Shown here: positions 23,965 through 61,394 of the stretch, one piece after another
How positions within the stretch are numbered: the first letter of the stretch is position 1
Layout of the letters: every line of letters starts with the position of its first letter
Source: Heterodontus francisci
Lineage: Eukaryota
Assembly (NCBI RefSeq): GCF_036365525.1
Contig: NW_027140453.1
Location: 930,001 to 994,000, forward strand
DNA: 64,000 nucleotides
Reading direction: 5' to 3'
The notes under the pieces: generated by a model
What the model was told of the DNA's origin: nothing
What the model saw: only the letters and a program-made list of their open reading frames with translations
Databases searched by the model: none
Position numbers and translations under genes: made by a program

Positions 23965-24003
23965 TGTTTTTGTTGAACTGCTCCATCTCTCTGAGTCACT
24001 GTG
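23965..24003 (-). other. 23-RSS of inverted V segment
   Basis: Minus strand CACAGTG (24003-23997), 23-nt spacer, ACAAAAACA (23973-23965). Confidence 0.95.
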
Positions 24004-24496
24004 CAGACTCCAGGCACAGAAATACAGCGCCGAGCGATTCTCCTGCAGGCTGGAGGACTCCAGGTTGAACTGGGAACCAGTCGGTCGTTTGGCAGTGAAA
24101 CCCTCCACCGTCCCTTCTGAGTTCACACTTGGTGTAACTGCGGAGTAAAACATCAGCCGCAGCTCCTTCCCCAGGTCCTGTCTGTACCAGAACATGTAAC
24201 CGCTACTCTGGCCCTCCACACGGCACTCCAGTCCCACTCCCTCCCCAGGAAATCTGGAGACGGCGGTGGGAGTCTGGCGGACCCTCGCTGAGATCGCGCC
24301 TGAAGGAAGAGACCGGGAGAGAAGAAGGTCAGTGAACAGGGACAATCTGGGATGTGAAGAATGAAGGAAGGAGAGAAAGATAGAGAGAAAGAAAATAAGA
24401 AAGAGAGCTGTTAACACAAACAATGGGGGTGTGGGGTGGAGGTGAGAAAGATCCCTTACTTTGAAATAAGACCATGAGACTCAGTAACAGATACAT
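24004..24496 (-). CDS. TRBV: TCR (beta) V segment, inverted, apparently functional; leader 24496-24460, V exon 24299-24004
   Basis: Spliced product MYLLLSLMVLFQSAISARVRQTP..LECRVEGQSSGYMFWYRQ..ALYFCAWSL; GT/AG phase-1 intron; C23, W41 and C104 intact. Confidence 0.92.
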
Positions 24497-25897: not shown

Positions 25898-25928
25898 TGC
25901 AGTTGCACCTGGAGCCACTAGGTGCCAG
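25898..25928 (+). promoter_or_regulatory. Candidate CTCF site with upstream (U) motif
   Basis: TGCAGTTGC-acctggag-CCACTAGGTGCCAG; core is 1 mismatch from CCRSYAGRKGGCRS. Confidence 0.55.
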
Positions 25929-41237: not shown

Positions 41238-42070
41238 ATGTTGCATGAAGTTCTCTGTTTAATCTTGATGGCTGCATTCTTTCCACGTAAGTGAAAGTCA
41301 GAAACTGTGTAGAATAATGTATTGTAATGTCAGCGGTGATTCTGTCTGGAACACTCCTGTGTCTGAGTCTCACTCCACAACACTTGAGCTCAAAGTCAAA
41401 AGTAACACCCCAGGTGTCAGGGCTGAGGGAGTGCTGCACTGTCGCAGAGGCAGGACTGAGGGAGTGCTGCACTATCGCAGAGGCAGTACTGAGGGAGTGC
41501 TGCACTATCGCAGAGGCAGTATTGAGGGAGTGCTGCACTGTCGCAGAGGCAGTACTGAGGGAGTGCTGCACTATCGCAGAGGCAGTACTGAGGGAGTGCT
41601 GCACTGTCGCAGAGGCAGTACTGAGGGAGTAACTACATTGGTTGCAAAGCCTTTCTGATGTCTTGAGGTCCTGAACGGCGCTATATTAATGTCAGCCCTT
41701 TCTTTCTTGCAATGCAGCTCCTGCTCCAATCCATTATTGACTGAAATAATAATTTAATCGATGTTCCATCCCACAGGAATACTCGCCTCCTATGTGGAAC
41801 AGTCGCCCTCTATCCTATCGATTGCAGCAGGAGATTCAACAACACTCAGATGCACGCTGACCAATACTGGCTGTACATTAATGTACTGGTACAGACAACA
41901 ACCAGACAGGGCACTGGAATCTCTGTTCTATTCTGCGACAGAAGGGTCTGTTACAAATTACACGTCTGAGTCATTTAATGCAGTCAGATCCAGCAATGCA
42001 CTGTTTACTTTGGCACTGAGAAACGCTGCTCCATCTCACACCGCTGTCTATTTCTGTGCTTGCAGTATCG
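41238..42070 (+). CDS. TRBV: TCR V segment of a distinct family, open frame, two extra Cys; leader 41238-41286, V exon 41777-42070
   Basis: MLHEVLCLILMAAFFPRILASYVEQSP..LRCTLTNTGCTLMYWYRQ..AVYFCACSI; GT/AG intact. Confidence 0.9.
41410..41710 (+). mobile_element. DeuSINE remnant with ~6 tandem 33-bp units inside the V leader intron
   Basis: gcagtactgagggagtgctgcactgtcgcagag repeats, then SINE tail ggcgctatattaatg. Confidence 0.75.
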
Positions 42071-42109
42071 CACAGTGTTTGAGAAAGCGGATTCGCAGCT
42101 GCAAGAACC
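42071..42109 (+). other. 23-RSS
   Basis: CACAGTG-23nt-GCAAGAACC. Confidence 0.9.
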
Positions 42110-42129: not shown

Positions 42130-42350
42130 TCAGTGCTCATCATCCACCGGCAGGGGGCAGCAGTAGATTGAATGTCAGTGTTCATCTTCCACCAGCAGGG
42201 GCAGCAGTAGATTGAATGTCTGTCCTCATTTTCCCCCGACAGGGGGCAACAGTAGATTGAATCGCTGTGCTCATCTTCCACCGGCAGGGGGCAGCAGTAG
42301 ATTGAATCTCAGTGCTCATTTTCCACCAGCAGTTGGCAGCAGTGGATTTG
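42130..42350 (+). promoter_or_regulatory. Five 45-bp tandem repeats each carrying a CTCF-like core
   Basis: CCGGCAGGGGGCAG at 42147 and 42281 match CCRSYAGRKGGCRS exactly; other units are variants. Confidence 0.65.
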
Positions 42351-58884: not shown

Positions 58885-59110
58885 ATGTATCTGTTACTGG
58901 GTCTGATGACCATCTCCCACCATAAGGAACTTTATGAAACATAATGCTGCTTAATAATTTTCTTTACTTTATAATTTCCTTCTCTCCTTGACGCTTTCAT
59001 TCCTCCCTTCCATCCTTCTTCCTCGATAATCCAGAGTGTCCTGGCGTCATTTTCGACCCATCTCTTTCCCAGATGTGAACTCACAGATTGTCCTCCAGAG
59101 TCCCACCACT
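58885..59110 (+). pseudogene. TCR V relic: leader with dead donor (GT>AT at 58922), first ~38 nt of V exon (from 59073), remainder and RSS deleted
   Basis: MYLLLGLMTISH leader; ag|atgtgaactcacagattgtcctccagagtccc then acctgtgggagataaa, which resembles post-RSS sequence of paralogs. Confidence 0.85.
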
Positions 59111-59464
59111 ACCTGTGGGAGATAAAGTTGCGCTGTACAGAGACTTGATTTTTGTGCAGGGCGATGGTGTTTGTGACAATAAGAAGGGACCCGTGTGAAT
59201 AAAAGTGAGAGAATAAATATAGAGGCACTGGTAAAGATGTCACTAATAGCCTGCTTATGTTCCCTAAAACCTTCTGTCTGTCTATGAATGATTAACGGGG
59301 ATGTGACCCAAATTGAGAAGATGTAAATATCAGGAAGGAATGATCACTAAAAATATTTAGGTTTCATCTCCTGACACTATCTTCATTCTCCACAGGGACA
59401 GCAGAGAGCGCTCTAGGACCGTCAAACAGACAACAGCCTGCCCCCTGCTTATTCAGGACACAAC

Positions 59465-60130: not shown

Positions 60131-60409
60131 TGTGAGTTCATAATGTTGTGTGTGATGCAAGATAAATGAGAAGCGTGGAGTCCAGTTGGTTGAAGATCAC
60201 AAACAAGTCTATTTACAGCTGAACTATCATACACAGTACTGAACTAACTATTTACAGGACCTGCCTGTAGGTGTTCCAGTTACAGAGTGACACTGGCTAC
60301 GAGTCACGTGACTACGTGCCGGAATTTAGCTCATTAGCATCCTAAGATCTTAAAGGGACATGAGAGAGAGATGGAGAGACGGACAGAGAAAGACAGAGGG
60401 AGAGAGAAA

Positions 60410-60590
60410 GATTAACACCAACGAATACAATAACAACTTGAGGAAAAAACACCAACAAATGCAGCAGCAACTTCAGCAGGCGACTAGCACCAAAAAATGC
60501 AACAACTTCAGCTGGAGACTACCAACAACAAATGCAGCAACAACTTCAGCAGGAGACTAAGAGCAACAAACGCAACAACAACTTATACTT
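60410..60590 (+). repeat. CAA-rich minisatellite upstream of V promoter
   Basis: Same family as the 22.2k and 24.7k arrays. Confidence 0.75.
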
Positions 60591-60746
60591 GCAGCCAAAC
60601 AGAGAGACAGGGGTGTGGCTTCCAATCAGGGAGGAAGGAGTTGTGAAAACCAAATCACTTACTTCAGTCTTCATGTAGCTCCTCACAGGACTCAAAGCTC
60701 TTGTTTCCACTGATTTACAGATTACAAACACAGCTTCCAGTAGAAG

Positions 60747-60783
60747 ATGTATCTGTTACTGAATCTGATAGTATTATTTCAAT
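60747..60783 (+). pseudogene. TCR V leader exon with no V exon in the window (orphan, or very long intron)
   Basis: MYLLLNLIVLFQ t|gtaagg; leader and ~150-bp promoter homologous to those of the inverted V at 24496. Confidence 0.8.
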
Positions 60784-60859
60784 GTAAGGGATCTTTTTCC
60801 CAAGTAACTTTTTGTGTTGACATTCAACATTTATCTTTTCGCAGTACCCGTTTCCCGCA

Positions 60860-61240
60860 ATTAGGGGGAGCAGTTGCTGGAGGTGCAGCTCTCATTGCCA
60901 ACCAACAGGGGGGAGCAGTAGATGGAGGTGCAGCTCTCATTGCCCACCAACAGGGGGCAGCAGTAGATGGAGGTTCAGCTCGCATTGCCCACCAAAAGGG
61001 GGTAGCAGTCGCTGGAGGTGCAGCTCTCTTTGTCTACCAACAGAGGGCAGCAGTAGACGGAGGCGCAGCTCTCTGCCCACCAAAAAGGGGGCAGCGGTCG
61101 ATGGAGGTGCAGCTCTCAGTGCCCACCAACAGGGAGCAGCAGTAGATGGAGGTGCAGCTATCATTGCCCACCCACAGGGAGCAGCAGTAGATGGAGGTGC
61201 AGCTGTCATTGCCCACCAACAGGCGGCAGCAGTAGATGGG
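60860..61240 (+). promoter_or_regulatory. ~8-9 tandem 45-bp repeats with CTCF-like core and U motif
   Basis: Unit ggaggTGCAGctctcattgcccaCCAACAGGGGGCAGcagtagat. Confidence 0.6.
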
Positions 61241-61394
61241 ATTTCAGCAACAAGAACATGAAATGTTAGAAATCCTCAGTGCATCAGGCAGGATCTGCAG
61301 AGAGTAAAACAGAGCTATCGCTTCACATCAGAACCGGCAAACATGAGAAGCGTTTTGAGCAACTTAAATGGATGTTTGAGCGTGAAGAAATGCA

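Follow-up and report, generated by a model that had tools for sequence, protein, structure and literature searches.

Organisation of the TCR-beta locus

The window analysed here, a 64,000-nucleotide stretch of the Heterodontus francisci assembly (contig NW_027140453.1, positions 930,001 to 994,000), contains ten V segments with 23-bp-spacer RSSs. One of these V segments has TCR-beta chains among its top natural PDB matches, and others match bamboo-shark and whale-shark proteins, one of which is named a TCR-beta chain. When D, J and C segments were mapped over 664 kb of the contig that contains the window, the set of elements that defines a TCR-beta locus was complete, namely V segments with a 23-RSS, GGGAC-type D segments with 12/23 RSSs, J segments with FGxG and C-beta exons. 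The assembly holds 21 C-beta exons, 99-100% identical to one another, on six contigs (C407, C761, C779, C1317, C1675 and C2233), with six of them on a single 1.57-Mb contig, that of the window. The mapped blocks form head-to-head pairs in which C-J-D-J-D is followed by nine V segments spread over both strands and then by D-J-D-J-C; on the far side of each C are larger V clusters oriented toward it, and most V genes are 3' of C and inverted. Some of the D-J-C copies may be haplotype duplicates. Work on the horned shark in the 1990s reportedly gave hints of multiple TCR-beta clusters. The literature we searched, mostly outside subscription journals and supplements, yielded no cartilaginous-fish report of a many-block TCR-beta locus or of a CTCF array such as the one described below; inverted 3' V genes and two to four TRB loci are described in other vertebrates, in reports that give no shark locus map (PMC11754216, PMC10464911). 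The multiplied D-J-C blocks are possibly more notable than the array.

A divergent second TCR-beta J and C exon lie tail to tail with the working unit (C407:994555-998585 and 23 more places). The best PDB matches of the second C exon, C-beta-2, are TCR-beta chains, and all 24 copies of the exon are broken; the relic J is open in nine of ten copies and has an RSS like that of the working J segments. Because the relic J and the broken C-beta-2 lie on the strand of the cassette that precedes them, each block consists of two TCR-beta units placed tail to tail, one of them dead. No D was found between the array and the relic J in the three copies scanned, and a search for an intact C-beta-2 in other species gave no match, which is weak evidence. 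E-beta was not located by an ETS-RUNX motif scan.

The cassette consists of an orphan V leader followed by an array of 45-bp units, which we call type B. Searches with the leader, the array and the 3' flank each return the same 24 places, and no intact V gene was found ahead of any type B array (the best 40 candidates were scored in each search). Four of the 21 working C exons lie so close to the end of a contig that too little sequence follows them; each of the other 17 is faced by a cassette located 23-34 kb downstream. The remaining cassettes are second copies further out (four), face a contig end (two) or have no C ahead (one). For 23 of the 24 cassettes a dead C-beta-2 exon, matched by hand, lies 7-15 kb downstream on the same strand, and the relic J follows in all ten copies for which downstream DNA was fetched, 3.4 kb downstream in the window's copy. 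The order is fixed: V cluster, leader and array, relic J, dead C-beta-2, a single CTCF-like site and, on the other strand, the working C-J-D-J-D. The cassette ends the V cluster and points toward the relic J and the dead second C-beta, with the array at the seam between the V cluster and the J of the dead unit. Three of the copies are 100% identical over 2.2 kb. Since all 24 descend from one ancestral block, the constancy of this position represents one event and is no evidence of selection. The new elements here are the cassette without a V exon, its recurrence at a fixed position in 24 copies, and the dead TCR-beta unit beside the working one; tandem CTCF clusters are already known from human and mouse IGH.

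Anatomy and origin of the 45-bp array

On the forward strand of the window, the cassette begins with a 38-bp repeat and V promoter region (60409..60746), homologous to the corresponding region of the V gene that has its leader start at 24496 on the reverse strand. It continues with the orphan TCR-beta leader exon, 12 codons with a GT donor and a member of the 'CAWS' V family (60747..60783), and with an intron remnant (60784..60832) that gradually ceases to resemble intact paralogs up to about 60823, where the deletion junction probably lies. A leading degenerate unit (60833..60878), intermediate between the consensus of type B and that of the related type A described below, contains a CAG that is also an apparent splice acceptor. 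It is followed by the type B array proper (60879..61237, +), in each of whose eight full 45-bp units a spacer separates an upstream-motif-like GTGCAG from a CTCF-core-like sequence with an 8-bp tail, and by a 3' flank (61249..61349, +) that is a dispersed-repeat remnant with 75-82% matches on large chromosomes. TRF places a 45-bp array at 60863-61239 with 8.4 copies, 85% matches and a score of 542. The eight to nine units noted by the first-pass annotation, and their start some 75 bp after the orphan leader (80 bp from the end of the leader exon to the TRF start), agree with these results, whereas its unit formula of TGCAG, 13 nt, core and cagtagat was too strict: TGCAG stands 13 nt ahead of the core in six of eight units, but only one conforms exactly. 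With head-to-tail units inside the 10-100-bp range and a copy number that varies from four to eight full units among 24 paralogs, the array is a minisatellite (VNTR).

Resemblance to CTCF sites was scored with a count matrix approximating JASPAR MA0139.1, for which 12.7 bits corresponds to p of about 1e-5. On this matrix the eight units score 12.1, 19.0, 13.1, 18.2, 7.3, 12.7, 7.2 and 13.7 bits, so that five of eight reach at least 12.7 and the best 19.0; across arrays, 96 of 158 full units exceed 12.7 bits and 144 of 158 exceed 8.1 bits, and each of the 24 type B arrays retains one to four units at 16 bits or more. The best unit cores match 13 of 14 positions of the published consensus CCASYAGRKGGCRS (PMC6746451), the fourth base of the core differing from it in nearly all units. 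The units also fit the arrangement of upstream motif and linker described for CTCF sites (PMC12885311), carrying the upstream (zinc fingers 9-11) motif at a linker of 5-6 bp, and a comparison by eye with the experimentally tested upstream motif of the IL3 insulator, CTGCAGCTTT, gives agreement at 8 of 10 positions (PMC12885311). Shuffled units reached 19.0 bits in 2 of 20,000 cases and combined 12.7 bits with TGCAG at 12-13 nt in 0 of 20,000, figures that overstate the surprise because the unit had been chosen for its CTCF resemblance. The locus is rich in minisatellites, and among the tandem arrays listed in the 664 kb only two families, the 45-bp arrays and one 52-53-bp array, score highly, the rest at 3.1 bits or less.

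We also considered a coding exon, in which the leader would be spliced to the array, 45 bp being 15 codons, and yield a secreted repeat protein. In its favour, the array is immediately preceded by a pyrimidine run with an AG behind it, and one type B array has a reading frame of 120 codons free of stops. Once leader and array are joined by splicing, however, the frame would end after 18-22 residues in 23 of the 24 copies and after 36 in the one that lacks a GT donor, and the open frame has only low-complexity matches, at 20-40% identity, among 1.84 billion proteins. The early stops and the nature of these matches led us to reject this reading, whose probability we judge to be negligible.

The sister array at 42 kb, type A, comprises five units (42130..42348, +; 4.9 copies by TRF) immediately after the RSS of a V gene from the 'CACS' family, whose open V exon and 23-bp-spacer RSS occupy 41776..42109 (+). 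TRF confirms for both arrays the shared 45-bp period and orientation noted in the first-pass annotation. Type A arrays lie directly behind the RSS in the 39 'CACS' genes examined, a subset picked from search matches, with 1-31 units and in many genes one unit only; the longest, L099 (C761:1527600-1529069), has 31 units behind one V RSS, and the description of the type B array as the larger one thus holds within this window but not elsewhere. Nor are the linkers simply different, as had been described, since the two consensus units are identical at 33 of 45 positions. The 12 diagnostic positions that separate them bear out a separate homogenisation of the two arrays. Their independent origin, in contrast, finds no support, given the common period, this identity and the leading type B unit, in which A and B states are mixed.

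The orphan promoter and leader region is 74% identical over 406 bp to the gene at 24496 and 82% identical to its closest paralogs. The intact paralog in the window (23965..24496, -) has no array behind its RSS, and in 12 of 12 'CAWS' paralogs with an RSS found, no CTCF site above 5.8 bits occurs within 900 bp behind it. Because the orphan leader's own V family has no arrays, the cassette is likely a deletion chimera, and we infer from these sequence relationships that the 5' end of one V gene was joined by deletion to an array derived from one ancestral repeat, with separate homogenisation thereafter. The loss of V exon and RSS that had been proposed is thus retained in modified form. Neither element precedes the type B array in any of the 24 cassettes, which dates the deletion as a single event before the duplications; it probably removed more than one gene's exon, as the leader's closest relatives have no such CTCF site and arrays of this type go with a different V family. 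Conceivably, the cassette came instead from an extinct V subfamily that had an array of its own. We are highly confident of the overall origin and anatomy, that of a related minisatellite fused by deletion and carried in 24 duplicated blocks.

Other sources of the cassette were rejected. A germline junction made by RAG is opposed by the apparent lack of a heptamer at the junction, and a V exon hidden in the 380-bp gap of two copies by the finding that the gap is a SINE-like insertion in the intron. A genome-wide satellite or transposon origin of the unit is at odds with the exact unit's 16 matches, all on TCR-beta contigs; the unit core has 463 matches, of which the 100 listed begin at C407, implying that the lower-numbered large contigs have none, provided the listing is in order. 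A search for copies of the array in other species by way of mis-predicted proteins found none. The SINE-like element, about 356 bp long, is inserted in the orphan intron of L025 and L026 on contig C2233. A second decayed V gene, with a leader and the start of a V exon only, lies just upstream of the orphan leader (window 58885-59150). Beside V genes of the window, and always on the V strand, are single CTCF-like sites of 10-14 bits at 25912, 36495, 40039, 48383 and 59395 (+), one of the five with the upstream motif.

Variation among units and among copies

The first-pass annotation had proposed selection for clustered CTCF anchors, to be recognised by conservation peaking on the motif. Between types A and B such a peak is weak: one of nine high-information positions differs (p=0.23), as do two of 15 core positions (p=0.14), and, of the 12 differences, two lie inside the 19 bp that the matrix covers (p=0.037). 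The types share an unbroken stretch of 18 bp across the core (p=0.013), but this includes non-motif letters. Within type B the check is negative. Among 50 distinct units, high-information positions account for 9 of 42 variants, where 8.4 would be expected, the mean score is 14.7 against 15.1 for permuted columns (p=0.61), and 15 of the 50 carry a change at one of the strongest G positions. Variation among type B units does not spare the motif, and the proposed selection finds no support there; type A, with a mean score of 16.4 against 14.9 (p=0.07), offers a hint of constraint.

These results bear on the possibility that selection expanded the cluster and maintains it as a strong anchor, in the manner of the ten CTCF-binding elements (CBEs) clustered at the mouse 3' Igh end (PMC10293834). 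The core and its spacing are kept in two separately homogenised unit types, the type A hint points the same way, and the array is oriented into the D-J-C block as those CBEs are (PMC10293834). Against this, type B units vary without evident constraint, many type A genes make do with a single unit, and the two arrays, being of common origin, are not two independent trials. We regard selection of this kind as unlikely. The unit number is best explained by ordinary minisatellite turnover rather than by selection for more anchors.

The array may alternatively be a neutral relic, a CTCF repeat formerly linked to a V gene or to the dead unit and kept by whole-block duplication, any binding to which would have no effect on rearrangement. 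Its variation looks neutral, its unit number ranges from four to eight full units among copies, its neighbours are wrecked (an orphan leader, no D in the three copies scanned and a C-beta-2 broken throughout), and the orphan promoter diverges between two cassette lineages as its flanking DNA does (7.8% versus 7.4%). On the other hand, despite having diverged by 27% from the sister array, the consensus retains a score of 19.0 bits, few of the differences between the types fall within the matrix span and none within the 18-bp run over the core, and at least one strong unit persists in all 24 arrays. We consider this reading a serious contender, nearly as likely as the folding barrier proposed below. 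In the neutral-like variation of its units, the divergence of its promoter at the rate of the flanks and its setting in a minisatellite-rich region, the growth of the array has the appearance of ordinary repeat turnover, whereas the motif itself is real and old.

The same promoter comparison informs a reading in which the V promoter would give a sterile transcript and load cohesin beside the array, with extrusion toward D-J. Promoter, leader and GT donor are retained in 23 of 24 cassettes, and the mouse Trbv1 promoter works in this way together with its CBE (10.1101/2024.10.13.618029), but the promoter region is no better conserved than its flanks between the two lineages, and we hold this role to be very improbable.

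Facing sites, known CTCF elements and a possible barrier

In mouse, V(D)J joining is known to be guided by clusters of CTCF sites. Dense clusters also occur in the VH domain of human IGH, as 'hot spots' with anything between 3 sites over 100 bp and 50 over 2.1 kb (PMC6746451). Like these, the array is a dense cluster of CTCF motifs with similar spacing that is not linked to an RSS, lies in a V region and runs along V transcription (PMC6746451); unlike them, it belongs to a cartilaginous-fish TCR-beta locus, stands behind an orphan leader at the end of a V cluster, and has the upstream motif in most of its units, which are putative CTCF sites. Human IGH usage has been linked to CTCF-site variants rather than to tandem repeats (PMC10362067). 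The CBEs associated with mouse and human VH RSSs are single sites 17-19 (or 48) bp from the nonamer (PMC6746451, PMC10293834). Type A resembles them in lying at a fixed short distance directly behind a V RSS and in being tied to one V family, but has 1-31 units rather than single sites; type B shares that origin and has neither V exon nor RSS.

The position of the array recalls two other mouse elements. In Igk, the CTCF sites of Sis face J and stop RAG scanning (PMC11153149), and the array likewise lies in the interval between the last V and a J, a few kb upstream of that J and pointing at it, in a locus of inversional joining (PMC11153149). It differs in that its J belongs to a dead unit, in having 5-9 tandem units instead of a pair, and in having no consistent V-facing, Cer-like partner: scattered single opposite sites (13-15 bits) occur 7-15 kb upstream in some copies, and the array itself does not form the paired, oppositely oriented V-facing element of the Sis or IGCR1-CBE2 type. 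In Tcrb, CBE3 occupies the interval that separates E-beta from the inverted Trbv31, which is used twice as often once CBE3 is lost (10.1101/2024.10.13.618029, PMC10772921). In 17 of 17 cases the array likewise lies between C-beta and inverted 3' V genes and points back at D-J-C, although it stands 16 kb further out than the single site behind C and borders a large V cluster, not one gene. The 3' Igh CBEs, too, form a cluster of sites in one direction 3' of the constant region with a facing site upstream of D (PMC10293834), but they end their locus, whereas the array has many V genes beyond it and is a minisatellite.

The single site, at 18.3 bits, lies 7.5 kb behind C-beta and faces C (C407:1006922-1006953 and 17 more exact copies, 18 in total). 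Judged by its sequence and placement, it fits the position of CBE3 better than the array does and is the best candidate counterpart of CBE3. RUNX- and E-box-like words, identified by eye about 0.6-0.8 kb inside this site, could mark E-beta. About 5 kb upstream of the first D, a 20.3-bit CTCF-like site, present in 21 exact copies, faces the array; because the array points at J and C and this site points back, the two are convergent across D-J-C. Two strong opposite CTCF-like sites 110 bp apart also lie about 5 kb upstream of the first D (C407:1045232-1045349 and paralogs), and this opposed pair, near ETS-RUNX composite words, is a candidate CBE1/CBE2- or IGCR1-like element.

By analogy with these systems, we suggest that the array may work like an element of the Sis or CBE3 type, and we tentatively favour, at a little short of even chances, its interpretation as a passively expanded and probably CTCF-bound one-way folding barrier in a Sis/CBE3-like position. 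The 45-bp minisatellite, related to the 42-kb array and presumably fused by an old deletion to the promoter and leader of a lost V gene, would be bound by CTCF and, oriented toward J and C, would stop loop extrusion in one direction where the V cluster ends. Loops would then run from the array to the facing site upstream of the first D and would bring the V cluster near D for inversional joining, while RAG scanning from the relic J would be stopped at the array, as it is by Sis and CBE3 in mouse. Inversional joining in mouse depends on loops and diffusion (PMC10772921), and skate TAD borders carry oriented CTCF motifs, such that the rules of CTCF orientation appear valid in cartilaginous fish (PMC10115646). 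The array may be redundant, as the 18.3-bit site behind C points in the same direction and fits CBE3 better. A search for ChIP runs that contain cassette sequence turned up none, which counts neither for nor against binding.

A bolder reading, which we consider doubtful, holds that some twenty near-identical D-J-C blocks each stand tail to tail with a dead unit whose V cluster was captured by inversion, and that the array would be a length-variable CTCF gate that blocks wasteful joins of V to the dead J and docks the captured V at D. If so, the array would be a tunable, minisatellite-built counterpart of Sis and CBE3 and a clue to the origin of the lone inverted 3' V-beta of land vertebrates. 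Returning to the barrier we favour, binding by CTCF would imply that CTCF-guided inversional joining was in use at the base of jawed vertebrates, and the 24 natural paralogs with their differing unit numbers would constitute a built-in dose series. Should the array prove unbound or inert, it would be an ordinary minisatellite relic, and the surrounding locus would be the real news.

A third CTCF-like array, an unrelated 52-53-bp minisatellite with a CTCF-like core and the upstream motif at 13 nt, occurs in L065 (C407:795996-797141) and L077 (918964-919130). We rejected it as proof of locus-specific selection because its 53-bp family is dispersed genome-wide, with 619 exact matches and the chromosome-scale contigs C21, C22, C28 and C39 among the first 100 listed. 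In a locus full of minisatellites, one of them scattered through the genome, CTCF-like arrays can spread without a tie to the locus, and the sequence of the 53-bp family makes it a possible repeat-borne source of CTCF sites in this genome. At C407:918912-919130, a 22.5-bit site and the short 52-bp array have divergent orientations close to where V genes change strand between two blocks, a possible domain border.
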